Below are positions 5,385-40,224 of a stretch of DNA of 64,000 nt, in pieces. How positions within the stretch are numbered: the first letter of the stretch is position 1; every line of letters starts with the position of its first letter. The notes below the pieces were generated by a model, which worked only from the letters and a program-made list of their open reading frames with translations, did no database searches and was not told the origin of the DNA. A program made the position numbers and the translations under genes. Source of the DNA: a virus; IMG/VR virus record IMGVR_UViG_3300050821_003720, positions 952 to 64,951 of that record; one strand, 5' to 3'.

Positions 5385-6625
5385 TGGAACTGTTCCACAT
5401 AGACTACGAATCTCAGAGTGAAGTTGAAATCGGAGATAAAGGTAATCGTGAAGGCGTAGGCCTTTACAATTACATGCATCATCCGACAACTAAGCCTTTG
5501 ATGCTGGCATACGCTCTTGGTAGTGCCAAGCCCCAATTGTGGGAGATAGCTCAGGGCGAGCCCATGCCCCAATTTGTTCGGGAAAGATTCATGGACCCGA
5601 ATCAATTAATGGCGGCGTGGAATTCTCCTTTTGAACGGGGAATGACTCTTGTGAAACTCGGTATTGATATTCCAATTGAGCGATGGCAGGACCCGCAAGC
5701 TAGTTCTCGATACCTATCATTGACCGGTAAATTGGAAATAGATGGTCAAGTCTTGAATCTTGGGCAAGAATTTGCCAAGGATGAACGTGGTGAAGATTTG
5801 ATTCACCTGTTTAGTCGATTGACGGTTCTGAAAGCTACTAAGAAACGAGAAGCAGCGAGCTTCTTTAATGACTGGAATTCACATCCTAAGGAGTGGCAGG
5901 AATTTGGAGAATATTGTCGTCAAGATATCGTTGCAGAACGAGAAATTATGCGCCGACTTCAACTTTTGGGAGTATTTCCTCTGCCCGAGCGAGAGCGAAG
6001 AATTTGGGTATTTGATCAAAAAGTCAACGACAGAGGGCTTCCAGTCAACATGGAGTTTGTTACTAAAGCATATAAATTAGCCTGTCGAGCTAAAGAAGCG
6101 GCTGTTGAAAATCAGCAACGATTGACTGGTTTAGAAAATGCTAATTCACCGTTGCAAATGCTTGAGTGGGCACAGGGACAGGGTTATAAGCCTAACACAC
6201 TACGTAAAGAACGAGTCACTGCTACATTAAAGTTTGAAAGAGAAGGATTGACGCCATTATGCATTCGAGTTTTAGAAGCACGAGCAGCAGCCAGTTCTAC
6301 AACATATAAGAAACTTGCTGCAATTATTAGACAGGTTTGTCCAGATAATCGTTTACGAAATCAGTTTATTTATTATGGATCGGCACGGTGTGGCCGCTGG
6401 ACAGGAAATGGATTTCAATTTCAAAATTTAGCTCGTCCGGATAAACGATTTGAAGATCAAGATAACGTTAAGAAGGCCCGAGCATTGATTTTTGCCGAAG
6501 ATTATGATGGTATTATTCGAGAGTTCGGCAAGAAGTCAGAAGATAATAACGGTGACGTTGATTACGGTTCAGTTTTGACCGTAGTGAAAAATTTGATCAG
6601 GACGGTTGTCGAGGTCGCTAAGTGA
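5366..6625 (+). CDS. family A DNA polymerase, N-terminal part (3'-5' exonuclease + thumb/fingers up to the TGR..PNLQNIP-like motif)
   Basis: Exo I motif [11 protein letters not shown]. Exo II-like [30 protein letters not shown] matches the TGRLSS..PNLQNIP region. Ends at a TGA stop (6623-6625). Confidence 0.85.
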
Positions 6626-7611
6626 AAACTCGCCTAAACGTTGCGGATTTAGCTGGAATAGAAACTCGGGTTTCCGCTTGGATCGCTGGATGCGAGCCTC
6701 TTTTAGAAGTATTTCGACTGAATCGTGATCCATATTTAGATTTCGCTTCAAAAATGTATCACATACCTTATGAGACATTAGAAGCCGATCTTCATTCAAG
6801 TGATCCTGTCAAGAAAGCCGCAGCGAAGTTCATGCGGCAGATGGCGAAGCCGGGAGTTCTTGCGGCGGTGTATCGTCAAGGTGCCGGTGGAATGGGTAAG
6901 GATAAAAAGACTGGTGATCCTAAGAAATTAGGTTTGTGGGGATATGCCGCAAATATGGGCATTGAGATGACGCTTGAACAGGCCCAAGATATCACTAGAA
7001 TTTTTAGAGAATCTTATCCTGAAATTGTCAGTATGTGGTATGCCTTAGAGATAGTTATTAAGTCTGTTCTGCAAGATCGGCCAATTAAGACTGAAAAGCC
7101 GGATATTATTTTCGCTTTAAATCGATTAAATCAAATCGGAATTAAATTCGACAAGATTGTCATAGATGATAAAGGAAACAAAAGAGTAATTCTTAGAACT
7201 CAATTGCCGTCTGGTCGATATCTTCATTATGTAGATGCTCACATTGATGATATTCGGATGCCCTGGAGTACTGAAGATAATGAAGTTTTCAAACCGGGTC
7301 TGATTTACAGTGGAGTTGATCAAGAAACTAAGCAATGGAAGAATGGAATCGTTAGTCACGGCGGAAAGATATTTGAGAATGATGTGCAAGGAATAGCTAG
7401 AGATATTTTCTGCGACAAGCTTTTAGAGATCGATCAAATTGGTTGCTGGATATGTGGACATGCACACGATGAAGGCATCGGAGAGACTCCCAATGATCCG
7501 TTTTTTCCGGGTTATAGAGAGATGGTTCACATTATGTCACAGCCGGTTAATTGGGCGAAAGATTTACCGTTAGGAGCAGATGGTTTTGAGAGTGAATTTT
7601 ACCATAAGTAG
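6622..7611 (+). CDS. family A DNA polymerase, C-terminal part (motifs A, B, C)
   Basis: GTG start overlapping the upstream stop (TAAGTGA). Motif A VADLAGIETRV at residues 6-16. Motif B KFMRQMAKPGVLAAVYRQGAGGMG. Motif C CGHAHDEG. Confidence 0.85.
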   Translation: MKTRLNVADLAGIETRVSAWIAGCEPLLEVFRLNRDPYLDFASKMYHIPYETLEADLHSSDPVKKAAAKFMRQMAKPGVLAAVYRQGAGGMGKDKKTGDPKKLGLWGYAANMGIEMTLEQAQDITRIFRESYPEIVSMWYALEIVIKSVLQDRPIKTEKPDIIFALNRLNQIGIKFDKIVIDDKGNKRVILRTQLPSGRYLHYVDAHIDDIRMPWSTEDNEVFKPGLIYSGVDQETKQWKNGIVSHGGKIFENDVQGIARDIFCDKLLEIDQIGCWICGHAHDEGIGETPNDPFFPGYREMVHIMSQPVNWAKDLPLGADGFESEFYHK

Positions 7612-7614
7612 AAT

Positions 7615-7953
7615 ATGAAAAATATTCCAATTATTTATTTTATACAATGTGAACAAACGAAATTTATAAAGATAGGAATAACAACTGATTTATCTAGACG
7701 ATTGGAAGTTTTACAAACGGGAAATGCTGAAAAATTAGAAGTTTTAGCAATAATTTCTTATCCCAGGGAGCGAGGACTTTCTAAACTTTGTCCTTTACCA
7801 GATGAGCGAATAGTACGGGCCTATATTACACGTTTAGAACGAGAACTTCATGATAAGTTTTTTAAGTTTCATGTTCGTGGAGAGTGGTTTAAGCCAGAAA
7901 AAGAGTTAACAGATTTTATAAGTGAGAGGAAAGGATGGGTGCCTATAGCGTAG
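7615..7953 (+). CDS. T5orf172/MUG113-domain (GIY-YIG-related) endonuclease-like protein
   Basis: IYFIQCEQTKFIKIGITTDLSRRLEVLQTGN fits the T5orf172 domain pattern. Confidence 0.6.
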   Translation: MKNIPIIYFIQCEQTKFIKIGITTDLSRRLEVLQTGNAEKLEVLAIISYPRERGLSKLCPLPDERIVRAYITRLERELHDKFFKFHVRGEWFKPEKELTDFISERKGWVPIA

Positions 7954-8342
7954 CTTATTATCGGGCGAATGAAGAAAAGATAAAAGAACAAAACAAGCTG
8001 TATTATCAGCGAAATAAGCAGAAGGTGATTGACAGGGCTGCCCGAGATAGACCAAAAAGAGTAAGGGCTGTTAAACGTCACTTAGTAGAATATTTAAAAT
8101 GTCACCCTTGTGTTGATTGTGGAGAAAGAGATATTGTGGTTCTTCAATTTGATCATGTGAGAGGACGAAAGAAATTCCAAATTTCGAGTATGATCATGAA
8201 TGGATACTCATGGTTAACAATTTTAAAGGAAATTCAGAAGTGTGAAGTTCGTTGTGCAAATGATCACATTAGACGCCATCGAAAAGGTGGCTATAGGATG
8301 AAAAATAATGCGGTGGGATATAAAATTAGACCTCACAATTAG
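7935..8342 (+). CDS. HNH homing endonuclease
   Basis: CHPCVDCG ... VLQFDHVRG ... CEVRCANDHIRRH (Cys pairs plus DH...N...H). Confidence 0.7.
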   Translation: MGAYSVAYYRANEEKIKEQNKLYYQRNKQKVIDRAARDRPKRVRAVKRHLVEYLKCHPCVDCGERDIVVLQFDHVRGRKKFQISSMIMNGYSWLTILKEIQKCEVRCANDHIRRHRKGGYRMKNNAVGYKIRPHN

Positions 8343-8586
8343 TCGTGGTAGAAAACGTGTCTTTGTTCTTGAGAGGATTTTTCCGTTTCTTAAACGATGG
8401 AAAGAGAATCATAAAACGGCTTATTATTCCTGTTTTCGAAAGACTCGTTTCACTAGTCACGGTGCAGCGATGAATGCAATGTGGTTCAAGAAACATCCGG
8501 AAGCACCAGCATTTTCGGCATACAATTGCGAGATTTGCGAGGGTTTCCACATAACAACAGAGAAAGGCAATGAAAGAGAAAGTTAA
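8308..8586 (+). CDS. hypothetical Cys-containing protein (CEICEGFH)
   Basis: ORF tiling between HNH and LAGLIDADG genes. No assignable domain. Confidence 0.3.
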   Translation: MRWDIKLDLTISRGRKRVFVLERIFPFLKRWKENHKTAYYSCFRKTRFTSHGAAMNAMWFKKHPEAPAFSAYNCEICEGFHITTEKGNERES

Positions 8587-8917
8587 AATTGCTTGGGCGG
8601 CAGGTTTGTTTGAAGGCGAGGGAAGCATTGTTCTTATTCAAGAATCTAGGGATAGGCGTCCGTACCCACGTTTACAACTTACAACGACAGATTCAGATGT
8701 GGCATATAAATTTAAACGATATATCAAAGCTGGTTGTATTTATGAGCGAAAGAGGAAAACAGTCACAGGAAAAAGAGTTTTCTTCTGGGTAATTAAATGT
8801 AAATTTGAGGTAAAACGAGTTTTGAAATTATTCATGCCATATTTTGGAGTTAGGAGAAGAAAAAAGGCGAAAGAAGCTTTGAAATTTACAAAATACATGA
8901 TTAGGAGATGGAGATGA
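8570..8917 (+). CDS. LAGLIDADG homing endonuclease (single-motif type)
   Basis: WAAGLFEGEGSI near the N-terminus. Size matches a homodimeric single-motif enzyme. Confidence 0.75.
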   Translation: MKEKVKIAWAAGLFEGEGSIVLIQESRDRRPYPRLQLTTTDSDVAYKFKRYIKAGCIYERKRKTVTGKRVFFWVIKCKFEVKRVLKLFMPYFGVRRRKKAKEALKFTKYMIRRWR

Positions 8918-15066: not shown

Positions 15067-15294
15067 ATGTCCGTGACAGAGCATGAGTTTGAAGTTAGAG
15101 AAATGCACGCTAAACAAGAGGCTGAAGGTCTTGGCGTGATAGGTAAGACAGGCAAGCCTGACCACTGGTTTAATCAACAACTCAAGGAGTGCTTCGCTCG
15201 TGATAAGAAGTCCGGAGCTATTAATTGGCAGCAGACTTTAGAGCTTCGAAAGAAGTTAGTTGCTGGATATGAAAAGAGGAAAGAGCGTGGCTAG
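15067..15294 (+). CDS. hypothetical protein
   Basis: 75 aa ORF in the operon tiling. Confidence 0.35.
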   Translation: MSVTEHEFEVREMHAKQEAEGLGVIGKTGKPDHWFNQQLKECFARDKKSGAINWQQTLELRKKLVAGYEKRKERG

Positions 15295-16063
15295 CCCATT
15301 TACAAATATTGCTATTGGTATAAAAACATTCCTCAGAGATGAGCACTTGTACAACGCTGTGAAGGGAATACTTCATACTCTTCCCGGCGCTCAGATTATC
15401 ATTGCGGATGACGGAAGGATGACTCCTGCTAAGTCTTTATTTTATGCACGGCTTCGGGAATCGGGTCACGTAACGGGATATCTTCCGTATGACTCTGGAT
15501 TTGGTTTTAAGAGTAACTGGATAGTTCAATCTAATACTCGTCCCTATCTTTTAATAGGGTCAGATGATTTTGATTTCACTCAAGATGTCGCTGAAGGAAT
15601 TCTTAAACTGCAAAGCGTATTGGATAACAATCCAGAAATTAGTATAGCAAGTGGTCGAGTTAGAAATCGTTCGTATGAATTTCTTTTAGAGGAAAAGGGT
15701 GGAGTTGTCAAAGAGCATCCTATTGATGTGGATATTAATGGGCGGGGGCAATCGTTTATTGAATGTGATCTGACAGTAAATTACTCCTTAATTAGGAGAG
15801 AAGTTTTCAAGTTTGTCCGATGGGACGATGACGTGAAGATCGGAGGGGGTGAACATGGAAGTTGGTTCTTAGATGTCAAGAGAGCCGGATTTAAAGTGGC
15901 ATATGTACCGGGAGTCAATATAAATGAGCAGAATCGGGCTAGTTCTCAGGAATATAGGAAATATCGTGCTAGAGCTAATTCTCCGGAGCGTCCTTGCTTT
16001 GGGCGAAGAGGTATCAAGTGTTATGTACTTGGAGACGGGAGAGTAGATTATGGCGAGCTGTAA
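15260..16063 (+). CDS. GT-A fold glycosyltransferase (first gene of the glycan island)
   Basis: IAIGIKTF ... AQIIIADDG and GSDDFDF (DxD-like) motifs. Confidence 0.5.
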   Translation: MLDMKRGKSVASPFTNIAIGIKTFLRDEHLYNAVKGILHTLPGAQIIIADDGRMTPAKSLFYARLRESGHVTGYLPYDSGFGFKSNWIVQSNTRPYLLIGSDDFDFTQDVAEGILKLQSVLDNNPEISIASGRVRNRSYEFLLEEKGGVVKEHPIDVDINGRGQSFIECDLTVNYSLIRREVFKFVRWDDDVKIGGGEHGSWFLDVKRAGFKVAYVPGVNINEQNRASSQEYRKYRARANSPERPCFGRRGIKCYVLGDGRVDYGEL

Positions 16064-16277
16064 ATCATATAGAAACCGCTTGAAAGAAATCGCTATGTTA
16101 AGAGAACTTCTTGGTCTTGCTCAACAGGAATTAGATAGTTTAAGTCTTAGAGTTAGATTGTATCGAGAATATATTCTAAAAACTTATCACGACGCCGATT
16201 TTATCGATCTTGTAGATATTCCTAGTTGCTTGAAACCCTTGGATTCAATTAAATATGTCACGAAGAATATTAAATAA
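16050..16277 (+). CDS. hypothetical protein
   Basis: 75 aa ORF. Confidence 0.3.
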   Translation: MASCKSYRNRLKEIAMLRELLGLAQQELDSLSLRVRLYREYILKTYHDADFIDLVDIPSCLKPLDSIKYVTKNIK

Positions 16278-16710
16278 ACTTAATGCTGCTTATCTATCTG
16301 GTTTAATCGATGGAGAAGGATGTATTTTTATAAATAAGAGTAAAGGACATCGAGAGAACTGTGGTAAAAGAGGCTTTACATATCATTCTGGCATCGCTGT
16401 AGCAATGACAAGTTATGAAATGCTTCTGTGGGCTAAAAGAATTACTGGAGTAGGACAAATTAGAACTTATAAAGCTAAAAAGCGCTATAAGCAAGCGTGG
16501 CGCTGGTCGGTTTGGAGTAATGAAGCATCAACTCTCTTGAAAAATTTATTACCATTTTTGAAATTAAAACGTCCGCAAGCTAGAAATCAGATTAAATTTC
16601 AAGAGTTAACAAGATTAACTGGTCGTTTTGGTTATACGAAGAGAGAATGGAAACAACAAACTCGTCTTTATAAAATGAATAAGAAATTAAATAAAAGAGG
16701 ACGACCATGA
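16255..16710 (+). CDS. LAGLIDADG homing endonuclease (single-motif type)
   Basis: LSGLIDGEGCIFI near the N-terminus. Confidence 0.75.
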   Translation: MSRRILNKLNAAYLSGLIDGEGCIFINKSKGHRENCGKRGFTYHSGIAVAMTSYEMLLWAKRITGVGQIRTYKAKKRYKQAWRWSVWSNEASTLLKNLLPFLKLKRPQARNQIKFQELTRLTGRFGYTKREWKQQTRLYKMNKKLNKRGRP

Positions 16711-17702
16711 ATTTAATTATTACTCATCGTTCATGTCCGGACGGCTTCTGTGCATCGTTCATTGCACACAAGAAATATCCTCAAGCTGAAATTCTACCGT
16801 TGAATCATGGCGATCCTTTACCGTTAGATCAGGTTCGAGGAAAAGATATCCTTGTTCTAGATTTTTCGTGGAAGCGTCGAGAAGATAATGAAGCAGTCGC
16901 TCAAGCAGCTAAATCAATATGGATTTTAGATCATCACAAATCGTCACTTGAAGCTTGCCAAGGACTATCGTATGCCACATTTGATATGAACAGAAGTGGC
17001 GCAGGGTTAGCGTGGGACTATCTTTTTGGAAAAGATAGTAACTACGTAGACCCCTATGTAAGACAACGTAATTCTGAAATGGAAAGTACTTATTTGCGTC
17101 ACAGAGGAAATTTTTCACCTAGACCTTGGTATGTTGATTATATCGAAGATTATGATCTTTGGAATCATTATTTAATTTCTACGAAAGAAGTCAATGCATT
17201 TCTTCATTCACTAAACTTCGATTTCGCTGAGTGGGAAGAACTGGATAAAATTACTTATCTGGATGCGGCAGAACGAGGAAAATATGTAGTTCGTAATAAT
17301 GAGCGCTATGTTAAACTGGCTTTAAAACAAGCTTTCACAGGCCAATTAATTATTCCTCAGTCTATTACCGATCCAGAAGGAAAATATTTTTCGTGTGATT
17401 ATTCAATTAAAATTGTTAATTCTTTATATACCTATGCTTCAGAGATCGGAGCCGCTTTAGTTGAGTCTGGTGCTGATATCGGCATGACGTGGTTTGAACG
17501 TGGCGACGGAATGATTCAGTTTAGTCTTCGATCTTTGAAAGGTGGTCCTGTAGATGTTTCTAAAATTGCTTCCATAATAGCACCTGGAGTCGGTGGTGGG
17601 CATCAGTCGGCATCCGGAGCGCCATTACCAATTTATCAGGGGCGAGCATTGATCGACTCGATCTTGAATCGGAAGTGCGGATTGGGAGTAAAGTTTCAGT
17701 GA
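16707..17702 (+). CDS. DHH-family phosphoesterase (NrnA/RecJ-like; possibly oligoribonuclease/pAp phosphatase)
   Basis: HRSCPDGFCASF (H-x-x-PDGD-like motif) and ILDHHKS (DHH motif). Confidence 0.75.
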   Translation: MNLIITHRSCPDGFCASFIAHKKYPQAEILPLNHGDPLPLDQVRGKDILVLDFSWKRREDNEAVAQAAKSIWILDHHKSSLEACQGLSYATFDMNRSGAGLAWDYLFGKDSNYVDPYVRQRNSEMESTYLRHRGNFSPRPWYVDYIEDYDLWNHYLISTKEVNAFLHSLNFDFAEWEELDKITYLDAAERGKYVVRNNERYVKLALKQAFTGQLIIPQSITDPEGKYFSCDYSIKIVNSLYTYASEIGAALVESGADIGMTWFERGDGMIQFSLRSLKGGPVDVSKIASIIAPGVGGGHQSASGAPLPIYQGRALIDSILNRKCGLGVKFQ

Positions 17703-18403
17703 GAACGTTGATAGCAGTTAAATCTTGCCAGGATGATAAACGTTTAGGATGCCATGATACTATTCGACGAACGTGGGGATTTAATACTTTACCAGCAGAT
17801 TTATATTTCTTTCAAGGACGATTTAGCGGATTTGAATGTGGTGTGATAGATAAAGATCGTGATGAAATAACATTGCCGGTTTTAGACGATTATGATCATC
17901 TGCCTTTTAAAACTCGTGAAATTCTTGAGTATTCTTTAAATGCTGGATATGATTTCACATTTCTGTGTGATGTAGACACATTTTTGATTACGTCTAAATT
18001 GTTTAAAACAGGCTACGAAAAGTTTGATTATTCAGGACGGTTCGGTTCTTCACCTAAGATAGGTAGTCAGTTTAAATTTAAAGATGGACGAGGAATTAGA
18101 CATCTTTATTGTCATCCGTGGGCGTCAGGTGGATTTGGTTATTTCTTGTCTCGTAAGGCGGCTCAGATAGTAATCAATACAGAGCCTATCTTTTGGGCAG
18201 AAGATATGTACGTAGGGCAGTGTCTAGGACCGGAAATACAATCAGGTAACGTGACAGCAGTTGATTTGAGAAGATTTGAAAATGAAGCTTCGTGGCATTA
18301 TCCAGCACATCGTTTTGGTTGGAGTAGAGAACGAATGCAGAAATGGATGCGAGAGATGCATGGACTATACAATGATCCGAACCATAAATGGGTTGAGATA
18401 TGA
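17699..18403 (+). CDS. GT31/Fringe-like GT-A glycosyltransferase, paralog 1
   Basis: YDFTFLCDVDTF (DxD). It is a paralog of 23899..24606 and 26204..26866. The GTG start at 17699 was chosen by alignment with the paralog N-termini (MKTLIAV / MKILIAI). Confidence 0.6.
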   Translation: MRTLIAVKSCQDDKRLGCHDTIRRTWGFNTLPADLYFFQGRFSGFECGVIDKDRDEITLPVLDDYDHLPFKTREILEYSLNAGYDFTFLCDVDTFLITSKLFKTGYEKFDYSGRFGSSPKIGSQFKFKDGRGIRHLYCHPWASGGFGYFLSRKAAQIVINTEPIFWAEDMYVGQCLGPEIQSGNVTAVDLRRFENEASWHYPAHRFGWSRERMQKWMREMHGLYNDPNHKWVEI

Positions 18404-19155
18404 TCGCTAGACTTACTGGCGGAATGGGCAACCAGTTGTTCATGTACGCATTCGGAAGATCAGTTGCAGCTATAGCTAACGAGCCTTTGAAGTTTCACTG
18501 GTGTCGTTCAACATGGGATTATGCTCTTGAACCATTTCATCTTCCGATAGTACTAGGCTCTCCTGACGGAACGGAGTCTATATATGAAGAGTCAGGATTC
18601 TTTTACGATTCAAAAATAGCTAATGGAATAATGGTGTCTTCCAGACCTTATCCATGTGAAAGAATTTATTTTCGTGGGTATTGGCAGAGTGAAAAATATT
18701 TCAATGTTGATTTACTTAGAAGAGATTTTGATTGGTGGGTTAACTCCCCTTTGAGAGTACAGTTTAGAAACAAGGCTTTCCTACATGTTCGTCGAGGTGA
18801 CTATTTAAATAGAGGTACCAAAGAATTCCACGGATTGCTTCCATTGGAATATTACCAAGCGGCAGTTGCGTATATTAAAGAGCGTGTTCCCGATATCACT
18901 TTTGAAGTCTTTACAGATGATCCTGATATGCGAGAATTCATGGGTTATCCTGTAGTTTCAACGGGAAATCAGCATTTAGATTTGCATACAATGACGAAGT
19001 ATTCTCATGCAATCTTGGCTAACTCTACGTTTGGGTGGTGGGCGGCATGGTTAGGAGAGCACTCTAGTCAGATTGTCATAGCTCCGAAACAGTGGTTTGC
19101 CGATCCTAAAATTAACACGAGCGATATTGTGCCTGAGCGGTGGGTGAGATTATGA
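18400..19155 (+). CDS. GT11 alpha-1,2-fucosyltransferase (FutC-like)
   Basis: [19 protein letters not shown] and [14 protein letters not shown] ... IVIAPKQW match GT11 signature motifs. Confidence 0.9.
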
Positions 19156-20093
19156 AAAGAGCACTTGTGACCGGTTGTACTGGGCAAGATGGAAGTTATC
19201 TTTGTGAACTTCTATTAGAAAAAGGATATGAAGTTCATGGAATAATTCGTAGATCATCGAGCATCAATACAAATCGTATAGATCACATTTTTAGTGATTT
19301 ACATCTTCATTATGGGGATTTGACCGACTCTAACTCACTTCGAAACATTTTGACGTTATCAAAACCCGATGAAGTTTATAATTTGGGAGCACAGTCGCAT
19401 GTTCGTGTTTCATTTGAAATTCCTATTTATACTTCGATGGCAACTGGTTTAGGTGCTTTAAACTTGTTAGATGCAGTCAAGGATTATGGCAACGCTAAAT
19501 TTTATCAAGCCTCATCGAGTGAATTATTCGGTTCCGCACCTGCACCTCAGTTGGAATCGACACCTTTTCACCCAAGAAGTCCATACGGTATCGCTAAACA
19601 ATTTGCATATTGGAGTACGGTGAACTATCGTGAAGCTTATAATATGTATACTTGTAACGGGATTCTTTTTAATCATGAGTCGCCTCGTCGAGGTGATACG
19701 TTCGTCACGCAGAAAATAGTCAAAGCAGCCGTTCGAATAAAACGAGGGCAACAAGACAAATTATTTCTAGGTAATCTAGAAGCGAAACGAGATTGGGGAT
19801 ATGCTAAAGATTATGTAGAAGCAATGTGGTTAATGCTTCAACAAGATAAACCAGATGATTATGTAATAGCAACAGGTGAAACGCATACGGTGCGTGAATT
19901 TGCTGAAGAAGTATTTAGATTACTTGATTTACCTTGGATTTATGTGTACATCGATCCTAAATATTATCGTCCTGCTGAAGTAGATATTTTGCTTGGAGAT
20001 GCCTCAAAAGCAAAACGACAGTTAGGGTGGAATCCTAAAGTGAAATTCAAAGAACTTGTCAGAATCATGGTCAATGCGGAGTTAGCAAAATGA
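19152..20093 (+). CDS. gmd: GDP-mannose 4,6-dehydratase
   Basis: [36 protein letters not shown] ... [11 protein letters not shown]; near-collinear with GMD. Confidence 0.9.
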
Positions 20094-20674
20094 CAGCCCA
20101 AGAATTGATCGACTTCGAGAAAGAGATAGCCAATCTATATAACCAGAAGAAAATTCCAGCCGTGATTCATCTAGCGAGTGGCGGCGAGGAAGAACTTATC
20201 AATATCTTTAAGGAAATTAAACGAAACGATTGGGTACTCGGTAGTTGGCGGTCACACTATCATTGCCTTTTGAAGGGTGTTCCACGAGAACAATTAAAAC
20301 AGAGCATCATTGACGGACACTCAATCGCCTTATGTTTTCCTGAGTATCGTATATTATGCTCTGGTATTTTTGGCGGCGTGCTTCCGATTGCTGTTGGATT
20401 AGCTATGGGAATTAAACGAACTGGAGAACGTTCTACAGTACATTGTTTTATGGGGGACATGACAGCTGAAAGTGGTATAGCTTACGAGTGTGTACAATAC
20501 TCACAAGGTCATGAACTTCCTATACGGTTTTATGTCGAAGATAACGGTTTATCGGTTTGTACTAAAACTCAAGATGTGTGGGGAACATCTTGGGATACGG
20601 CATTGGTAAAAAGATACTCATATGAACCGGGACGCTACCCGCACGCCGGTTCTGGAGTAAGGGTGCCATTTTAA
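20090..20674 (+). CDS. TPP-dependent dehydrogenase E1 alpha-like subunit (short form)
   Basis: HLASGGEE ... [11 protein letters not shown] and [34 protein letters not shown] resemble the E1-alpha TPP-binding region. Confidence 0.5.
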
Positions 20675-21210
20675 TGAGATACCAAGAAGCTTTAACTCAG
20701 GCCATGAATTATCTGGGTCAAGATCAACGGACAATCTTTATCGGTCAAGCTGTGGCGGTCCCAGGAACAATAATGTCCCCTACATTAGTCACCGTTCCTG
20801 CTGAAAAGAAAATTGAATTACCCGTGGCCGAAGAGATGCAGATGGGGATGTCTCTAGGCTTAGCCTTGAATAAATTTATTCCAGTTTCTATTTATCCGAG
20901 ATGGAACTTTATGCTTCTGGCAATAGGACAGCTTGTTAATCACCTGGATAAGATCAAGGAAATGTCAAGTGGTGGATATAAACCAAAGGTGATCATCCGT
21001 ACCGGAATCGGAGCTAAGAAGCCTGTAAACCCGCAGTGTCAGCATTTAGGAGACTTTACAGAGGCTTTCCGGATGATGCTGACTAATATCCAGGTAATCC
21101 GACTAGACGAGCCTGAGGACGTTCTACCAGCTTATCAGAGGGCACTGCAACGGGAAGATGGGAAGAGTACAATCTTGGTAGAGTGGGGAGATTTCTATCA
21201 TGAGAAATAA
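20674..21210 (+). CDS. TPP-dependent enzyme E1 beta/transketolase pyrimidine-domain-like subunit (short form)
   Basis: Adjacent to and coupled with the E1-alpha-like gene. GQDQRTIFIGQAV ... is a weak E1-beta-like pattern. Confidence 0.4.
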   Translation: MRYQEALTQAMNYLGQDQRTIFIGQAVAVPGTIMSPTLVTVPAEKKIELPVAEEMQMGMSLGLALNKFIPVSIYPRWNFMLLAIGQLVNHLDKIKEMSSGGYKPKVIIRTGIGAKKPVNPQCQHLGDFTEAFRMMLTNIQVIRLDEPEDVLPAYQRALQREDGKSTILVEWGDFYHEK

Positions 21211-22198
21211 AATGAGTCTAACTAACTGCGATGCTTTTGATGTTGCGCACTCTGTGGATTTCAGTTCTCTTGATGGAGCAAGAGTAACGATTTCTGGTGT
21301 GACTGGTTTGTTAGGTACGCATTTTCTGGCGTCATTATGCTTAGCTAAAGAAATCTACAATCTTAATTTAGATGTTGTAGGAGTCTGCCACTCAAAACCT
21401 GCAGATTATACTACAGCTTTGGCTGAGCGTGGAAGTTTTAAACTACAATCATATGCTCCACGAAAATCTGATTTGATAATTCATGCAGCAGGATACGCTC
21501 AGCCATCTGTTTTTCTTGCTAACCCGGCTGAAACAATCAAACTTAATACTGAATTAACACACGATCTTTTGCAGAGTTTAGAAAAAAGTGGCAGATTTTT
21601 ATTTATTAGTTCCAGCGAAGTTTATAGCGGACTGACTGGCGTGGTTGATGAGTCGCAAATCGGATTAACAAATCCTTATCACCCCCGGTCCTGCTACATC
21701 GAGGGCAAGCGCTGCGGAGAAGCCATTTGTAATGCATATTATCAGGCTGGAGTGAAAGCTAAATCAGCTAGACTATCCTTAGCTTATGGACCAGGAACTA
21801 GACGTGATGATAAACGAGCCATGAGTCAATTTATTAATCAGGCTCTATCGACGGGTATAATTAGCATGAATTATTTAGGAAGAGAGCAGCGTACGTTTTG
21901 TTATATAAGAGACGCTATAGAAACTTTGTGGCAAATTTGTTTACACGGCAAAGAACAAGTATATAATGTTGGTTCTCCTATGACGGCTAGTATGTTTGAT
22001 GTGGTTCGATTGATAGCTAAGATAACTGGAGCCAAAGTTTTAATTCATCATGAAGCTGAAGAACTTGTTGGTTCTCCTGAGGGTACGGTGATGGATATCA
22101 GTTTAGCGGAAAAAGAATTCAGTAAGGGTTCTTACATAAGTTTAGAGCAGGGTTTAATACGTACAATCAAGTGGCATGAGGCTCTTTATGCCGTTTAA
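21200..22198 (+). CDS. NAD-dependent sugar epimerase/reductase (SDR; candidate GDP-4-keto-6-deoxymannose epimerase/reductase)
   Basis: Rossmann GVTGLLGTHF and YxxxK (YIEGKRCGE). Confidence 0.7.
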   Translation: MRNKMSLTNCDAFDVAHSVDFSSLDGARVTISGVTGLLGTHFLASLCLAKEIYNLNLDVVGVCHSKPADYTTALAERGSFKLQSYAPRKSDLIIHAAGYAQPSVFLANPAETIKLNTELTHDLLQSLEKSGRFLFISSSEVYSGLTGVVDESQIGLTNPYHPRSCYIEGKRCGEAICNAYYQAGVKAKSARLSLAYGPGTRRDDKRAMSQFINQALSTGIISMNYLGREQRTFCYIRDAIETLWQICLHGKEQVYNVGSPMTASMFDVVRLIAKITGAKVLIHHEAEELVGSPEGTVMDISLAEKEFSKGSYISLEQGLIRTIKWHEALYAV

Positions 22199-22736
22199 AA
22201 TTGTTGAAGAATATTTCCAGGGCGAAGTTAAAGTCATCTCGTCTCAGCCAGTCTTGGAAGACAAGAGAGGATTTTTCGGTGTAGAATATCGTTCAGACGA
22301 ATTCTGGAGACTAGGTTTGCCTTCGTCCTTCGTCCAAGACAACCGTTCATCATCTGTTAAAGGAACCATCCGAGGGTTACATTTTCAACCCGAGATGGGA
22401 AAGTTGATGAAGGTTACTAAGGGCATAGCGTGGTTTGTCTCTGTAGACCTACGGCAATCGTCACCGACATTTTTAGATTGGCAAAGTACGTTAGTGTCGG
22501 CTGAGAATCGTGTACAGGTTTGGGCACCGTGGTATTTTGCTCGTGGTTTCGCCGCTTTGACGGATATCGAAATAGAGTACAAATGCACACAGTTATTCGA
22601 TCCGGCTAAAGACTACGGAATTTGTTGGAATGATAAATTTATAGACGTAAGATGGCCTATTAAGCATCCGATTGTTTCTGTAAAAGACGATAACGGTCCA
22701 ACTGTTCTTCAATTTAGGGAGAAATTGCCTCGATGA
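22188..22736 (+). CDS. RmlC-like cupin sugar-nucleotide 3,5-epimerase
   Basis: FFGVEYRSDEF ... KGTIRGLHFQ ... KLMKVTKGIAWFVSVDLR. Confidence 0.65.
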   Translation: MPFKIVEEYFQGEVKVISSQPVLEDKRGFFGVEYRSDEFWRLGLPSSFVQDNRSSSVKGTIRGLHFQPEMGKLMKVTKGIAWFVSVDLRQSSPTFLDWQSTLVSAENRVQVWAPWYFARGFAALTDIEIEYKCTQLFDPAKDYGICWNDKFIDVRWPIKHPIVSVKDDNGPTVLQFREKLPR

Positions 22737-23902
22737 GAAAAATTACTTTAGGTTATTTGAACATCAGTAAACAAGGAAAGCGCTATGTAAATGAGGCTCT
22801 TAATGAAAACCGACTTAGTCGGGGACGGTTCACGGATCGTTTTGAACAAGATTTCGCTCAATTACATCAAGTTAAACATGCTTTGTTCTGTAACAGTGGA
22901 ACATCGGCTTTACAAATCGCTTTAGCTGCATTGAAAGAAGTCTATGGATACAAAGATGGCGACGAGGTGATCGTTCCGGCCACGACATTTATCGCTACGT
23001 CAAATATAGTTCTCCAGAATAATCTTAAGCCAGTCTTCGTAGATGTCGATCCTGAAACCTATAATATCGATCCATATAAAATTTCCAAAGCTATCACTGA
23101 TCGAACTCGGTGTATCCTACCGGTTCACTTGTTTGGTTTGCCAGCAGATATGTACAACATAATGATTCAAGCTAAGTCTCATGGATTGCAAGTTCTTGAG
23201 GATTCTTGCGAAACTATGTTTGCATCTCAGAACAGTAAATCCGTTGGAAGTTTTGGAGACTTAGCTTGTTTCAGTACTTATGTTGCTCATTTGATTGTCG
23301 GTGGAGTCGGCGGCATTGTGACTACATCGAATGCTAAACTATACGACATATGCCGCAGCCTAATGAATCATGGTCGCAGCACAGACTACATCACAATAGA
23401 CGATGATGATAATCCTGCGGATATTTCAGACATGGTTGAACGTCGATATCAATTCGACCGAGTGGGTTACTCTTATAGAGCAACAGAATTGGAAGCAGCT
23501 ATCGCTCTATCTGAATTAGAAAATTATGAAATAAATATCAACCGACGCAGAAAAAATGCCACGCTGTTAACTAATCTTCTTAAAGACGTAAATTGGTTAC
23601 AACTTCCAAAAATTCCAAACAACATGACGCACTCTTTTATGATGTATCCGATAGTCGTTAAGTCTCATACAAAGACACGAAACGATTTTCTTATTTACCT
23701 AGAACGAAATGGAGTCGAGACGAGATACATGTTTCCTCTGTTGAGTCAACCCGTTTATCAGAAATTGTTTCCACGTGAGGAATCTAAACACTATCAAGCA
23801 GAGGGATTGGCTGAAAGAGGATTCTTTATCGGTATTCATCAAGGCTTGACAGACGAAGATATTCAGTATGTAGCTAAGGTGATCAAGGATTATCAGAAAT
23901 GA
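22733..23902 (+). CDS. DegT/DnrJ/EryC1-family PLP-dependent sugar aminotransferase (or 3-dehydratase)
   Basis: FCNSGTSALQIALAAL and the overall DegT fold pattern. Confidence 0.85.
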   Translation: MRKITLGYLNISKQGKRYVNEALNENRLSRGRFTDRFEQDFAQLHQVKHALFCNSGTSALQIALAALKEVYGYKDGDEVIVPATTFIATSNIVLQNNLKPVFVDVDPETYNIDPYKISKAITDRTRCILPVHLFGLPADMYNIMIQAKSHGLQVLEDSCETMFASQNSKSVGSFGDLACFSTYVAHLIVGGVGGIVTTSNAKLYDICRSLMNHGRSTDYITIDDDDNPADISDMVERRYQFDRVGYSYRATELEAAIALSELENYEININRRRKNATLLTNLLKDVNWLQLPKIPNNMTHSFMMYPIVVKSHTKTRNDFLIYLERNGVETRYMFPLLSQPVYQKLFPREESKHYQAEGLAERGFFIGIHQGLTDEDIQYVAKVIKDYQK

Positions 23903-24606
23903 AAACCTTGATAGCTGTTTTGTCTTACGACGGAGACGCAGGCAACGGTAGTCATGACGTTATCCGAGAAACGTGGGGCAAAGATGTCGCAGCAGCTGGT
24001 GCCGAATTACGTTTCTTTGTTGGTCGGCGTGGACCGGAGTTCTGTCCTAAGCGAGACGAAACCTGCATTCCGTGGCAACAGAATAGAACATGCAATCATC
24101 CATTTTTTCATTCACAAGAAGGATGTTGTGAAGATTTCTGGCAATTCTTGACTAAAGAAATTATCCGATGGGGTTTAAATCGAGCTTACGACTTTACATT
24201 TTTGTGTGAAAATGATACATTCCTGATACCACAAAAGTTGATGCAGTCAGGATTTGAAAAGTTCGATTTCTGTGGATCATTCCGTCCTGTGGGAATTCCC
24301 CTAGGAACCAAAACTCCGTATGAAATTTACGGACATCCTCTCTATGCTTGGCCTGATCCTGGGGTTGGTTATTTTGTTTCTGAAAAAGCAGCACGAGTAA
24401 TATCTAATGCTAGACTCGATCATTGGTCTGTTGGTATGTATGCTGGTCAAGTCTTAGGACCCGGTATAGAGCTAGGTGAAATTAAAGCGATGAATTTTCC
24501 CGAAGATATCTCATGGCACTATCGAGAAGTCAAGGGAAAGGGCTACACAACTCCGCTTCGTGAAGGGCATCAGTGGATGCGGGAGATGTACCGAAATGCA
24601 AAATGA
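23899..24606 (+). CDS. GT31/Fringe-like GT-A glycosyltransferase, paralog 2
   Basis: YDFTFLCENDTF. Paralogous to 17699..18403 and 26204..26866. Shares a C-terminal WHY..QWMREM motif with paralog 1. Confidence 0.6.
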   Translation: MKTLIAVLSYDGDAGNGSHDVIRETWGKDVAAAGAELRFFVGRRGPEFCPKRDETCIPWQQNRTCNHPFFHSQEGCCEDFWQFLTKEIIRWGLNRAYDFTFLCENDTFLIPQKLMQSGFEKFDFCGSFRPVGIPLGTKTPYEIYGHPLYAWPDPGVGYFVSEKAARVISNARLDHWSVGMYAGQVLGPGIELGEIKAMNFPEDISWHYREVKGKGYTTPLREGHQWMREMYRNAK

Positions 24607-25438
24607 CGCTGGATATACACCTGTTATCTACGCTAACTATGATGTTAAGTTGCCTAATCTGAATTGGCAATGCTCTGTTTCTGTAGACATTTTTAATTTC
24701 TCTGATACGACTCCTTATAAAGTGTTCTGGCAGATGGAACCTGATGAAATTATACCCGGCACTGAAGAGAAACTGATCAAGAATCATAAATTTTATGATC
24801 TGATTTTGACTTGGAATCACATGGTACTGAGCGAATGCGGTAACGCTCGATTCTTTGCTCCAGGTTCGGTATGGACTCAGGAAGCCGATGTAAGTCAGAA
24901 GAAATTCGCCATATCTTATTTGACAAGTTCTAAGACCGGTTGTCCTGGCTATGAGTTGCGGCACAGAATATTCAGAGGACTTCCGCCGTCCATCAATAGA
25001 ATTCCAATAACGAAACATCAATCACCGCCATATCTTCTTAATAAACGAGAAATGTTGGTACCATTCCAATATACTATCGTGATTGAAAATGCTTACCGGC
25101 ACAATTACTTTACTGAGAAATTGTTAGATGCATTTGCAACTAAGACGATTCCGATTTATTGGGGTTGCCCTCGATCCTTTGATAAGGATGGAGTAGGCGA
25201 ATTTTTTAATACGGACGGCGTGATAGCCATTAAAGATTATAAAGACCTTTTTCAAGTTATCGCTTCATTGACACCAGACTTCTACCAATCTCGACAAACT
25301 GTGATAGAAGAAAACTATAAAAAGAGCTTGACATATGTAGATAGAACTGGTAATCTAGTCAAAGCGATCAATGCTTCGTGGACTCCCACGATCATGAGGG
25401 TCCATAGCGGAGAACCGAATGTCGCTCCCGAAAGTTAG
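24596..25438 (+). CDS. GT10 alpha-1,3(/4)-fucosyltransferase
   Basis: FQYTIVIENAYRHNYFTEKL matches the GT10 FxxxFENSxxxxYxTEK motif. Start set at ATG 24596; the track ORF starts at 24560. Confidence 0.8.
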   Translation: MQNDAGYTPVIYANYDVKLPNLNWQCSVSVDIFNFSDTTPYKVFWQMEPDEIIPGTEEKLIKNHKFYDLILTWNHMVLSECGNARFFAPGSVWTQEADVSQKKFAISYLTSSKTGCPGYELRHRIFRGLPPSINRIPITKHQSPPYLLNKREMLVPFQYTIVIENAYRHNYFTEKLLDAFATKTIPIYWGCPRSFDKDGVGEFFNTDGVIAIKDYKDLFQVIASLTPDFYQSRQTVIEENYKKSLTYVDRTGNLVKAINASWTPTIMRVHSGEPNVAPES

Positions 25439-26207
25439 CCTCGTTTGTCCGACTTATAATCGGGCACGCTACATGCCTATAGTTCTGAGATGTTTTACTC
25501 AACAGACTTACTCAAATGTAGAATTGATTATTGTGGACGATGGCGAACAAACTTTATCCCTGCCAGCAGATGATCGCATTAAATATTATAAACTGGAAAA
25601 AAGAACACCCACCGGCACAAAAAGAAATATCGGAGCGGATATAGCCACTGGAGAAATCGTGGCGAATTTGGATGATGATGATTGGAGTTCGCCACATAGG
25701 ATTGAGGAACAAGTTGAACGTCTTGCTTTTACCGGTAAAGCTGTCACAGGCTATAATGTTACAATTTCTTATGATGAAGCAACTGGATTGTTTTATAGGA
25801 ATCAAGGTGGACCACCTTATTTAGCATCCGGTACAAGTCAATGTTATTTGAAGTCGTGGTGGGAAAAACACCCATTTCTAGATGTAACTTATGGAGAAGA
25901 TAGCGTATTCGCTAGAGAAGCGAGATTAGCTGATCAGTTAGCTATTGCGGACCCTGGTAAAATGATGGTCGCCAGAAAACATGCTAACAATACCGATTAT
26001 GTACAAATTAAATGGCTCAAATCGTGGTCAAGAGAAAATATAGCTCTAGAATTTTTCAAGGCTATTCATAACCCTAGACCATCTTTAGACTACATATGGG
26101 AAAAACACGATTGTACTCGTGAGTGTGCTATCGATGCTGAATCTCGTTTCAGAGCACCTATCGTAGAATATAAGACACAGTGGATTCCGGAGATTAAAAC
26201 CCAATGA
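25419..26207 (+). CDS. GT2 glycosyltransferase
   Basis: VSLVCPTYNRARY ... ELIIVDDG ... DDDD. Confidence 0.8.
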   Translation: MSLPKVSLVCPTYNRARYMPIVLRCFTQQTYSNVELIIVDDGEQTLSLPADDRIKYYKLEKRTPTGTKRNIGADIATGEIVANLDDDDWSSPHRIEEQVERLAFTGKAVTGYNVTISYDEATGLFYRNQGGPPYLASGTSQCYLKSWWEKHPFLDVTYGEDSVFAREARLADQLAIADPGKMMVARKHANNTDYVQIKWLKSWSRENIALEFFKAIHNPRPSLDYIWEKHDCTRECAIDAESRFRAPIVEYKTQWIPEIKTQ

Positions 26208-26866
26208 AGATTTTAATAGCTATTGAAAGCTGTGCAGCAAATAGAAACTTGCATCAGGCTATGCTTGACACGTGGCTTGGTGCTTTGTCTATTATGGACG
26301 TAGATTGTCGTTTCTTCATTGGCGGATTGAGTGAGCCTAAAAATCATCTTGAAGTATGGGTTCCTTGTTTAGACACGTATGATAATTTAGCTGTTAAGAC
26401 CAGAGGAATTTGTCGATGGGCTGCAGCTAACAATTATGATTTTCTTTTCAAATGTGACACAGACACGGTCGCTAATCCAAAGCGTCTCCTAGAAAGTGGA
26501 TTCGAATCGTTTTATTATATGGGCGCATTTAATGAAGACATTCTTCCAGTAAGTTTGAATAGCACTCTACCTCAATTTAAAGGTCAGAAGATTCAATTTG
26601 CTAGCGGTGGAGCTGGTTATTGGTTAAATCAGCGAGCTATGATTACCGTCGCAAACGGCTTAGTCGCATCGTCTCCGGCTGAAGATGTCTATGTAGCTGG
26701 AGTGTTACATCAAAATATGCGTCCTGTTTGGAACGAAGGTTATCGCTGGCGACCAGGATCGAAGATTAAAGGTGCCACGACTTTTCACCTATCTAGCGCC
26801 CTTCAAGTGAAATACCGTCCGGAATTGATGTATGAATATTATCAAAAAATAATGCTTGACAAATAA
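26204..26866 (+). CDS. GT31/Fringe-like GT-A glycosyltransferase, paralog 3
   Basis: YDFLFKCDTDTV ... GGAGYW. N-terminus MKILIAIESC is parallel to the other paralogs. Confidence 0.55.
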   Translation: MKILIAIESCAANRNLHQAMLDTWLGALSIMDVDCRFFIGGLSEPKNHLEVWVPCLDTYDNLAVKTRGICRWAAANNYDFLFKCDTDTVANPKRLLESGFESFYYMGAFNEDILPVSLNSTLPQFKGQKIQFASGGAGYWLNQRAMITVANGLVASSPAEDVYVAGVLHQNMRPVWNEGYRWRPGSKIKGATTFHLSSALQVKYRPELMYEYYQKIMLDK

Positions 26867-28200: not shown

Positions 28201-28665
28201 ATGATCAACGGATTCACAGGTCGATACGGTTTCTTATCGAATTTCTATGTCTATCCGATTCAATGGCGGGATAGAATTCTTAGATCGGCTGAGCACGCTT
28301 ACCAGTCGGAGAAAACAACCGACGAATTAGAACGGGAGACGATCTATCGTGCAGGGACTCCTGCCGATGCTAAACGATTAGGCGGAAAGAAACATCTTAA
28401 ACACTTAGCTCCCGATTGGGATAGTATTAAAGACGGCATTATGCTACAAGTTCTTCGGGCAAAATTTCAAGACTCTGAATTAAGAAAACTTTTTCTGGAA
28501 ACACGGAATGAAGAGTTAATCGAAACGAATTGGTGGGGTGATATTTATTGGGGAGTTTGCAACGGACGTGGTAAGAATAAACTAGGCTATATTTTAATGC
28601 AAGTTAGAGGCGAGATTCAACGAGAGAATCAAAGATTGTCCTTTGAATTATTAGGAGACTCATGA
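28201..28665 (+). CDS. NADAR (YbiA/DUF1768) domain protein
   Basis: GFLSNFY ... SAEHAYQSEK ... WD..K...M..VLRAKF ... WGDIYWGVCNGRGKNKLGYILMQVR follows the NADAR consensus closely. Confidence 0.85.
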   Translation: MINGFTGRYGFLSNFYVYPIQWRDRILRSAEHAYQSEKTTDELERETIYRAGTPADAKRLGGKKHLKHLAPDWDSIKDGIMLQVLRAKFQDSELRKLFLETRNEELIETNWWGDIYWGVCNGRGKNKLGYILMQVRGEIQRENQRLSFELLGDS

Positions 28666-39087: not shown

Positions 39088-39089
39088 AC

Positions 39090-39118
39090 TTGACAAGCTA
39101 TCTAGAGCGTGCTATTCT
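39090..39118 (+). promoter_or_regulatory. sigma70-like promoter of the repeated family upstream of the integrase gene (AAAATAAAC-TTGACA-17nt-TATTCT)
   Basis: TTGACA 39090-39095 and TATTCT 39113-39118. ATG 39125 follows. Confidence 0.5.
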
Positions 39119-39124
39119 TTGTTT

Positions 39125-40048: not shown

Positions 40049-40224
40049 AACGAGTATTTAGTGTCCGTTTAAAAAATAAGAGCACTAGTTACCCTGATGA
40101 CACGATTCACTATTGGGTGCTGGCTAAAACTGCTCAGGAAGCGGCAAGTAAAGCGTTAAAGAAAACTGGATCAATTTATCGAATTACTGAAGTAAAAGAT
40201 GAAGGAACTATAGACATATATTAA
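40046..40224 (+). CDS. small hypothetical protein (59 aa) directly downstream of the integrase
   Basis: ATGA overlap with the integrase stop. Confidence 0.3.

Follow-up and report, generated by a model that had tools for sequence, protein, structure and literature searches.

What would a phage make with the glycosyltransferase families that build animal blood-group antigens? The question is raised by a 64,000-nucleotide stretch of viral DNA (IMG/VR virus record IMGVR_UViG_3300050821_003720, positions 952 to 64,951; hereafter the window), in which the region 18400-25438 holds the genes of a GT11 (alpha-1,2) and a GT10 (alpha-1,3/4) transferase. An earlier note, made from the sequence alone, had read this pair, together with GT31-like beta-1,3 transferase paralogs and precursor enzymes for guanosine diphosphate (GDP)-fucose, as the enzyme set for Lewis b/Y or H-type epitopes, with which a phage could mimic animal glycans. 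The family parallel with the Lewis/ABH toolkit stands, whereas the donor pathway encoded between the two transferases probably ends in a sugar other than fucose. The region belongs to a module of 15 plus-strand open reading frames (ORFs), tightly packed and often overlapping, at 15260-26866 of the window (about 11.6 kb; Table 1). In our reading, to which we give about even chances, this module is a self-contained glycan builder of a large tailed phage, with a GDP-3,6-dideoxyhexose as donor, a Lewis-b/Y-like topology and virion proteins as acceptor.

The GT11 and GT10 transferases

The GT11 ORF (251 amino acids) matches Pfam Glyco_transf_11 over profile positions 110-295 (E=8e-18, 65.1 bits against a cut-off of 23.9) and phrog_2644 with 107 bits. 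Its translation contains a motif at residues 7-18, the GDP-binding HVRRGDY (HxRRGD(Y) type) and a C-terminal NSTFSWW-type motif; no relative of solved structure was found for it by sequence. Homologues occur in more than 100 cyanophage records, and the protein is predicted to transfer a deoxyhexose from a GDP-sugar in alpha-1,2 linkage.

The GT10 ORF, scanned as 24560-25438, carries the motif VIENAYRHNYFTEK and matches Pfam Glyco_transf_10 (E=1e-6, 28.9 bits against a cut-off of 23.9). For its start, the ATG at 24596, which gives 280 amino acids, is favoured over the GTG at 24560 by homologues and by public gene calls. All four motifs that had been called clear for the pair were found in the translations of 18400-19155 and 24560-25438. 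By sequence, the GT10 ORF has its closest solved relative in the Helicobacter pylori alpha-1,3-fucosyltransferase (HpFucT; 2nzw, E=4.5e-9), and the alignment to HpFucT residues 222-292 spans the donor-binding motif FEN...Y.TEK..DA (FxxxFEN type). An AlphaFold model made with 30 homologues had a mean predicted local distance difference test score (pLDDT) of 88.9. In a Foldseek search of the PDB, ranks 1-6 went to AtFUT11, HpFucT, FUT9 and mango FT13 (E about 2e-6), with template-modelling (TM) scores of only 0.41-0.54. Within the GT10 family of 238 proteins E60, R134, N177 and D190 are invariant, E60 also across the 30 homologues; E60 is a candidate counterpart of Glu95, the catalytic Glu in the N-terminal domain of HpFucT.

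The GT11 enzymes WbgN and human FUT2 both accept GDP-colitose as well as GDP-fucose, and according to the authors of that work substrate availability dictates the glycan (PMC11987014). Therefore, donor supply decides the product.

The GDP-sugar pathway

Because a DegT-family protein with His in place of the catalytic Lys, an RmlC-like cupin, a short-chain dehydrogenase/reductase (SDR) and a pair of small thiamine diphosphate (TPP) proteins, TPPa and TPPb, lie between GT11 and GT10, the likeliest donor is, judged from these predicted proteins, a colitose-like GDP-3,6-dideoxyhexose, probably with a yersiniose-like two-carbon branch.

GDP-mannose 4,6-dehydratase (GMD) clears its family cut-off (Table 1), and homologues and public gene calls suggest that it starts at 19152 (scanned ORF, 19140-20093). 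Among the GDP-fucose precursor enzymes that the earlier note had mentioned, this is the part that holds. GDP-L-fucose synthase (Fcl/GMER/WcaG) was found nowhere in the 64-kb window, either by tblastn with the Fcl-like proteins of relatives or with the Fcl model, and the same searches showed ColC, the Fcl-family C5-epimerase/C4-reductase, to be absent from the window. The SDR was considered as Fcl and rejected, with 28 bits against an equivalog cut-off of 500; its best PDB relative is a uridine diphosphate (UDP)-glucuronic acid decarboxylase.

In the DegT protein, His186 aligns with the Schiff-base Lys186 of perosamine synthase (PerA) and with His220 of E1, the cytidine diphosphate (CDP)-sugar 3-dehydrase; the E1 H220K mutant present in the PDB falls in that column too. 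Like ColD, the ORF lacks the Cys-rich Fe-S segment of E1. Such a His-for-Lys signature, known from ColD and E1, marks pyridoxamine 5'-phosphate (PMP)-dependent 3-dehydratases, which convert a nucleoside diphosphate (NDP)-4-keto-6-deoxyhexose to a 4-keto-3,6-dideoxy sugar. A perosamine-type aminotransferase, to which the best PDB score pointed, was rejected since the catalytic Lys is replaced by His. The His is kept at the Schiff-base position in 16/16 DegT copies detected across the fetched loci, which comprise 12 copies from close phages (59-83% identical, beside GT11), two from distant phage contigs (27%) and two from bacteria.

These observations bear on the model of the earlier note, in which the GT31-like enzymes would supply Gal-GlcNAc chains and GT11 and GT10 would add genuine L-fucose to them, so that true H and Lewis b/Y antigens arise. 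The donor would come from the phage GMD and a host Fcl, or from the RmlC-like protein and the SDR acting as a two-protein fucose synthase. Indeed, the families and folds of GT10, GT11 and GT31 match and GMD is present; a 3,5-epimerase and a 4-reductase could in principle stand in for Fcl; a prophage GT11 (futC) has been shown to make 2'-fucosyllactose (PMC12748750); and the GT6 gene beside GT11 in related phages suits an H-antigen-like acceptor. However, not only was Fcl not found in the 64 kb, but a His-type 3-dehydratase, which would draw on the same GMD product, is always encoded alongside, the TPP pair is present as well, and the donor choice of GT11 follows supply. Moreover, no sign of an animal-associated source was seen: when the cluster was searched for near-identical DNA among 50,697 phage records, the one match covered 118 bases within GMD, in the record of a phage from human faeces. 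True Lewis/H epitopes, and with them mimicry of animal glycans, are unlikely, because donor supply decides the GT11 product and the His-type DegT would steer the GMD product towards a 3,6-dideoxy sugar; we consider the fucose model as a whole improbable.

The choice of probes is affected in the same way. The lectin UEA-I bound the fucose glycan and not the colitose glycan, which only the anti-O55 antibody recognised. Probing the product of the module with UEA-I or anti-Lewis reagents could therefore give false negatives.

The thiamine diphosphate pair

TPPa (194 amino acids) covers positions 3-170 of the 300 of the E1_dh profile, and TPPb (178 amino acids) the Pyr domain only; the full-length E1 architecture, with subunits of about 325 and 345 amino acids and a beta C-terminal domain, was not found in them. 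The Mg/TPP motif of TPPa, GD(M)...EDN, aligns to GDG...ENN of human E1alpha, and the cofactor-activating Glu of TPPb (PVAEE) aligns to PLNEG of E1beta. TPPa has 3167 homologues. The pair adjoins a His-type DegT gene in both bacterial contexts and lies one to two genes from one in the phage contexts.

Yersiniose-type branched octoses are 3,6-dideoxy sugars, and in yersiniose biosynthesis a His-type 3-dehydrase acts before the TPP step (YerE). Pairs that resemble the E1 component of pyruvate dehydrogenase, such as AviB1/B2 and Pau11/12 (325 and 345 amino acids for the latter), put a two-carbon branch at C4 of 4-keto sugars (PMC4425429). C-4 hydroxyethyl-branched octoses are found naturally in the polysaccharides of several Gram-negative genera (PMC4753412). 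From the gene linkage to the His-type DegT, which is the one line of support here, we infer that the TPP pair may transfer a pyruvate-derived two-carbon unit to the keto-sugar.

The two bacterial loci (L084 10001-12354 and L086 10001-12347, a Verrucomicrobiae metagenome-assembled genome (MAG) among them) encode TPPa-TPPb pairs with 59-66% identity immediately upstream of the His-type DegT. Genes for a GHMP kinase, a nucleotidyltransferase, a NUDIX protein, an SDR, B12-radical-SAM enzymes and transferases lie near this triad, and the whole looks like a widespread rare-sugar pathway that is as yet uncharacterised.

The GT31-like paralogs and other transferases

The GT31-like beta-1,3 transferase paralogs of the earlier note proved to be real. 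The three proteins share 27-36% pairwise identity, and paralog a models as a B3GNT2/B3GalT5-like fold; against the Pfam PF01762 threshold of 23 bits only paralog a lies above, with paralog c below and paralog b giving no match. The model of paralog a (pLDDT 93.6) had as its best PDB matches in Foldseek B3GNT2, B3GalT5, B3GalT6, C1GalT1 and Manic Fringe (E about 1e-12 to 3e-12, TM 0.67), and the top 36 matches were all GT31-type enzymes or chondroitin synthases. The GT-A-like ORF at the head of the module has no Pfam match; it gave a weak match to the TIGR04440 glycosyltransferase model (24.7 bits) and a weak, insignificant PDB match to B4GALNT1 (E=0.0065). Its gene is found at the equivalent position in the related contigs L001 (83%), L089 (65%), L003 and L002.

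The R...DxD...EDxY pattern of the GT31-like paralogs resembles a motif reported for phage GT-A DNA transferases (bioRxiv 10.1101/2023.12.21.572611), and the transferases might instead build an oligosaccharide on a hydroxylated base of the phage DNA. The module also lies among replication and nucleotide-metabolism genes, and there are precedents in the polyarabinosyl-5-hydroxycytosine of RB69 and DLP3, with a nucleotide-sugar pathway, and in metavirome GT-A/GT-B DNA glycosyltransferases (PMC13326640; bioRxiv 10.1101/2023.12.21.572611). However, among all sizeable plus-strand ORFs of the window and of the nearest 10 kb before its start, inspected on an 85.8-kb ENA metagenome contig, there was no ThyA-type hydroxylase/hydroxymethylase, TET/5mYOX enzyme, C5-methyltransferase or hydroxymethyluracil (hmU) kinase, only ThyX and dCMP deaminase. 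In addition, the GT10, GT11 and GT31 folds best match glycan-acting enzymes, and the T4 alpha-glucosyltransferase was only a generic GT-B match, at rank 29. A role in DNA modification thus seems very improbable.

The proposed route

As inputs, the glycan builder would draw on host GDP-mannose and presumably common UDP-sugars, nothing more. GMD, a function shown at the family level, would yield GDP-4-keto-6-deoxymannose, from which the His-type DegT, to go by its active-site signature, would strip the 3-OH in a ColD-like manner to give GDP-4-keto-3,6-dideoxymannose. The RmlC-like cupin would then epimerise C5, the TPP pair would add a pyruvate-derived two-carbon unit at C4, and the SDR would reduce the remaining keto group, leaving a 3,6-dideoxyhexose of the colitose/yersiniose kind in GDP-activated form. 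A beta-linked backbone would be the work of the GT2, the GT-A-like enzyme and the three GT31-like enzymes, and GT11 at alpha-1,2 and GT10 at alpha-1,3/4 would both cap it with this fucose analogue. The glycan would keep a Lewis-b/Y-like topology with a sugar other than fucose.

Related loci

Gene order in the module is conserved across a lineage of phage contigs of 17-112 kb, at least 12 of which are syntenic with the window, with varied forms in L001, L003, L004, L016 and L092-L095, and GT11, GMD and His-type DegT occur together in 12 fetched loci. In L089 it is fully collinear, with 54-90% amino-acid identity. In L001 the flanking transferases are 80-90% identical (GT11, 90%), SDR and RmlC are divergent, a gene for an FkbM methyltransferase is present and the TPP pair is missing; the pair is carried by L002, L003, L016 and L092-L095. 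L004 and L010 encode GMD, a His-type DegT and an Fcl-family SDR. Because the scores of this SDR against NF047922 (284 and 278 bits) fall below the Fcl equivalog cut-off, it is, by its sequence, an Fcl paralog such as ColC, and the predicted gene set is the canonical colitose set. In L092 and L093 a GT6 gene (the family of the ABO blood-group transferases) directly follows GT11 in place of GT10, and a gene for a collagen-repeat protein lies further downstream. The variable parts of the block across relatives are thus the tailoring genes (ColC-like, methyltransferase, TPP pair) and the capping transferase (GT10 or GT6).

A further contig, L090 (CABMCB010000059.1, 99.9 kb), is filed as 'uncultured archaeon isolate LFW-28' and encodes a helicase 60% identical to that of the window, together with GT31-like and GT11 genes. 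It was the sole contig returned by a genome-collection scan for a host; probably it belongs to a phage and was binned into an archaeal MAG by mistake.

The acceptor and the weight of the reading

By analogy with known viral systems, we rank virion proteins first as acceptor, an envelope glycan of the host linked to undecaprenyl diphosphate (Und-PP) as a close second, and DNA last. Virion proteins come first because the machinery is all-soluble and complete, as in the chloroviruses and mycobacteriophages; the window encodes neither polytopic membrane proteins nor a flippase, a polymerase or an initiating transferase. As in those viruses, the phage structural proteins would be glycosylated in the cytoplasm before or during assembly. 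This is the weakest step of the proposed route.

With the same chemistry, the transferases might act instead on Und-PP-linked O-antigen, capsule or core intermediates of the host and alter the cell surface during infection or lysogeny, with superinfection exclusion, grazing protection or receptor masking as the effect. The integrase at 38912-40048 would fit this, and WbgN and other O-antigen transferases are soluble proteins with glycolipids as their substrates. Cell-wall/LPS (lipopolysaccharide) gene sets of cyanophages are usually read in this way (PMC12801897), and colitose and yersiniose are classical O-antigen sugars. Nevertheless, genes for a flippase, polymerase, ligase, initiating phosphoglycosyltransferase or Gtr-type proteins are absent from the window, and known seroconversion takes one to three genes, compared with seven transferases and a six-enzyme pathway here. 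The module also sits in the replication arm with no promoter or terminator of its own detected, and it is kept across relatives from several unrelated samples. We regard modification of the host envelope as possible but somewhat unlikely.

Several points weigh against our reading of a virion-directed GDP-3,6-dideoxyhexose module, in which the enzymes are predicted throughout. The TPP pair, whose family of 3167 proteins has no characterised member, reaches only about half the size of AviB1/B2-type subunits, and the reaction given to it is a guess. The DegT protein scores 143 bits against ColD, 185 against perosamine synthase and 176 against E1; as it is no closer to ColD than to the others, the 3-dehydratase call rests on the His signature. 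The regiochemistry of the SDR cannot be assigned. The RmlC-like protein and the SDR could turn the GMD product into GDP-L-fucose or another 6-deoxy-L-hexose, so that two donors may coexist, and the host may supply GDP-fucose. As for the acceptor, it is not identifiable from sequence: the 17 structural ORFs have no Pfam match and one marginal PHROG match, and a scan of them for Ser/Thr-rich tails, as in the glycosylated mycobacteriophage proteins, showed nothing notable, so that no capsid or tail protein stood out as a candidate acceptor. Lastly, O-antigen glycosyltransferases are typically soluble too, and the lack of membrane proteins is compatible with a lipid-linked acceptor.

Comparison with known systems

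The nearest parallel to the pathway is the colitose system of Escherichia coli O55 (GMD, ColD, ColC and the GT11 WbgN), with which it shares entry through GMD, a His-for-Lys DegT protein without Fe-S segment and a pathway-linked GT11; the relatives L004 and L010 also hold a third enzyme of Fcl/ColC type. In place of such an enzyme the window has the RmlC-like cupin, the UXS-like SDR and the TPP pair. It is also phage-borne, lacks a Wzx/Wzy context and adds a GT10 partner and three GT31-like enzymes. A colitose-capped, Lewis-b-like unit is known from Vibrio cholerae O139.

Among branched-sugar systems, yersiniose biosynthesis (E1 dehydrase, YerE and YerF), AviB1/AviB2 and Pau11/Pau12 resemble the module in that a 3-dehydratase has a reductase and a thiamine-dependent enzyme beside it. 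Retained in the window pair are the E1 alpha/beta Pfam families, the TPP motif and the catalytic Glu, and the target proposed for it is likewise a 4-keto sugar (PMC4425429). In contrast, the subunits of the window have 194 and 178 amino acids instead of 325 and 345, and the nucleotide is GDP, not CDP or deoxythymidine diphosphate (dTDP). YerE belongs to a TPP family different from that of the window pair.

The Lewis/ABH machinery (FutA/B/C of H. pylori; B3GalT5/B3GNT2, FUT2, FUT3/9 and GT6 of mammals) has the same CAZy families and GDP-binding motifs and gives the best structural matches. The proteins of the window are, however, shorter and soluble, with 12-20% identity; their pathway does not end in fucose, and Gal-GlcNAc acceptors are unsupported. 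Crystallised HpFucT chains have 371-420 amino acids and the full-length enzyme 478, against 280 for the GT10 of the window.

Other viruses also encode their own nucleotide-sugar enzymes together with cytoplasmic, membrane-free transferases, as do chlorovirus PBCV-1, where GMD/GMER and soluble transferases serve the capsid protein, and mycobacteriophages (Freeman 2023). Giant viruses and phages likewise have Fringe-like enzymes of the GT-A fold. Here the sugar chemistry differs, and the mycobacteriophage transferases adjoin capsid or tail genes, which those of the window do not. Further parallels are the cell-wall/LPS gene sets of the cyanophages P-SSM2, S-SCSM1 and S-SCSM2R and the prophage GT11 futC, and S-SCSM2R is annotated with a GT10, two GT11 and RmlC (PMC12801897). 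The pairing of GT10 and GT11 in a phage is therefore not new. In these cases neither a 3-dehydratase nor a TPP branching pair has been reported, whereas the window has one tight operon-like block of 11.6 kb with a complete GDP-sugar tailoring route. No report of a phage-borne GDP-3,6-dideoxyhexose route, or of a unit of mini-E1 and 3-dehydratase, was found in the literature; the new element is the pathway chemistry.

Genomic context

The features of the module are listed in Table 1.

Table 1. Genes of the glycan module in window coordinates, and GT6/collagen-repeat regions of two related contigs
Feature	Coordinates	Strand	Evidence or remark
GT-A-like glycosyltransferase, module head	15260..16063	+	DxD-like motifs IIADDG, GSDDFDF
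LAGLIDADG homing endonuclease	16255..16710	+	Pfam LAGLIDADG_1, 35.1 bits; free-standing, between GT-A and DHH-like genes
DHH/DHHA1-like phosphoesterase	16707..17702	+	sub-threshold DHH and DHHA1 matches, about 20 bits each
GT31-like paralog a (fringe/beta-1,3-transferase fold)	17699..18403	+	Pfam Galactosyl_T, 24.7 bits vs 23; DxD = DVD
GT11 alpha-1,2-(deoxy)hexosyltransferase, GDP-sugar donor (predicted)	18400..19155	+	Pfam PF01531
GDP-mannose 4,6-dehydratase (GMD)	19152..20093	+	TIGR01472, 498 bits vs cut-off 415; Pfam GDP_Man_Dehyd, 449 bits
Mini E1-alpha-like PP-domain protein (TPPa)	20090..20674	+	Pfam E1_dh, 58 bits vs 22; phrog_34187
Mini E1-beta-like Pyr-domain protein (TPPb)	20674..21210	+	Pfam Transket_pyr, 39.3 bits vs 27
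Extended SDR, putative ketoreductase	21200..22198	+	Pfam Epimerase, 117 bits; GxxGxxG and YxxxK motifs
RmlC-like cupin sugar 3,5-/5-epimerase	22176..22736	+	TIGR01221, 159.5 bits, just over cut-off 155.75; Pfam, 155 bits
DegT-family PMP-dependent sugar 3-dehydratase, ColD/E1 type (predicted)	22733..23902	+	Pfam DegT, 325 bits
GT31-like paralog b	23899..24606	+	36% identical to paralog a; no Pfam match; DxD position = END
GT10 alpha-1,3/4-(deoxy)hexosyltransferase, GDP-sugar donor (predicted)	24596..25438	+	Pfam PF00852; alternative GTG start 24560
GT2 glycosyltransferase	25419..26207	+	Pfam Glycos_transf_2, 78.3 bits
GT31-like paralog c	26204..26866	+	Galactosyl_T, 21.9 bits, just under 23; 33% identical to paralog a; DxD = DTD
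GT6/collagen-repeat regions, related contigs	L092 12576-14002 and 15042-16082; L093 9009-10552

The window is identified as phage by genes for a prim-pol/helicase, PolA, a UvrD-like helicase, a GH108 endolysin, an SLT protein and an integrase, and by its relatives in IMG/VR. Its plus arm (1-42 kb) encodes the prim-pol/helicase, a split PolA, ThyX, dCMP deaminase, the UvrD-like helicase, a PD-(D/E)XK nuclease, a NADAR protein, the endolysin, the SLT protein and the integrase. The minus arm (42-64 kb) consists of large ORFs without annotation save for one marginal tail match: the 17 large minus-strand ORFs at 42314-63837, presumed to be the structural arm, gave no Pfam match and one marginal PHROG match, to a major tail protein. 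The virion module is thus very divergent. Identical copies of the GT11 and primase proteins lie on the 85.8-kb ENA contig, which reaches about 31.7 kb upstream of the window start and whose coordinates rule out that it contains the whole window. Since the sole DNA match to an isolate record is that to 118 bases of GMD, no isolated phage is close to the window. Promoter and terminator scans round the module gave signals at chance level, and a tRNA scan found none.

Two genes near the module head are not transferases. The LAGLIDADG gene looks like a recent mobile insertion, because no counterpart was present in any of the fetched related loci, the collinear L089 and L001 included. The DHH-like gene, between the GT-A-like gene and GT31-like paralog a, is kept in L001 (78%), L089 (74%), L004, L002 and L092, and a PDB search with its protein gave insignificant matches only. 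Its task could be the hydrolysis of nucleotide by-products, or it could be a gene for recombination that became trapped there.

Elsewhere in the plus arm, a nucleotide-metabolism block at 2261-5384 encodes ThyX, a YpsA/SLOG (DprA-like) protein, dCMP deaminase, an unknown 155-amino-acid ORF and an enzyme of the IMPDH/GMP-reductase family. In the stretch that follows (5366-8917), the family-A DNA polymerase is apparently split into ORFs 5366-6625 and 6622-7611, and small ORFs after it (7615-7953 and 8570-8917, from the gene calls of L091) have T5orf172/GIY-YIG-like and faint LAGLIDADG matches, which suggests homing-endonuclease activity round the split gene. L089 shares with the window a gene for a NADAR-domain protein downstream of the module (28201-28665); as proteins of this family reverse ADP-ribosylation, it may be an anti-defence gene. 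At the junction of the two arms (38912-41149) lie a tyrosine integrase (38912-40048; Pfam match weak but above threshold) and an SPFH/Band-7 protein, which hints that the large phage is temperate.

Implications

Taken in full, the picture would be that of a widespread lineage of large phages from soil and freshwater with an autonomous cytoplasmic system of the ABH/Lewis families (GT31, GT11, and GT10 or GT6), which caps virion proteins with an undescribed sugar, a GDP-activated 3,6-dideoxyhexose with a two-carbon branch at C-4, made by a new mini-E1-like enzyme paired with a ColD-like 3-dehydratase. That pairing would be present, uncharacterised, in thousands of bacterial and phage genomes, and the variable genes of the block would mark an antigenic arms race over the glycan coat. 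All of these parts together are a bold claim, which we hold to be doubtful.

If the reading is true, it would add a new nucleotide-sugar route, with GDP-linked, TPP-dependent C-branching on a 3,6-dideoxy-4-keto sugar. Responsible for the branching would be a family with more than 3000 uncharacterised members, found in every context examined at most two genes from a DegT gene, of the His type wherever checked. For annotation, the lesson is that GT10, GT11 and GMD together do not equal fucose or a Lewis antigen, since the donor choice of GT11 follows supply. Being short and soluble, the transferases of GT10, GT11 and GT31 type could be of use as catalysts for deoxy-sugar analogues of Lewis glycans. 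Complete glycan-assembly lines of 13 enzymes, drawn from the transferase families of animal blood groups, would exist in phages beyond the cyanophage and mycobacteriophage groups.

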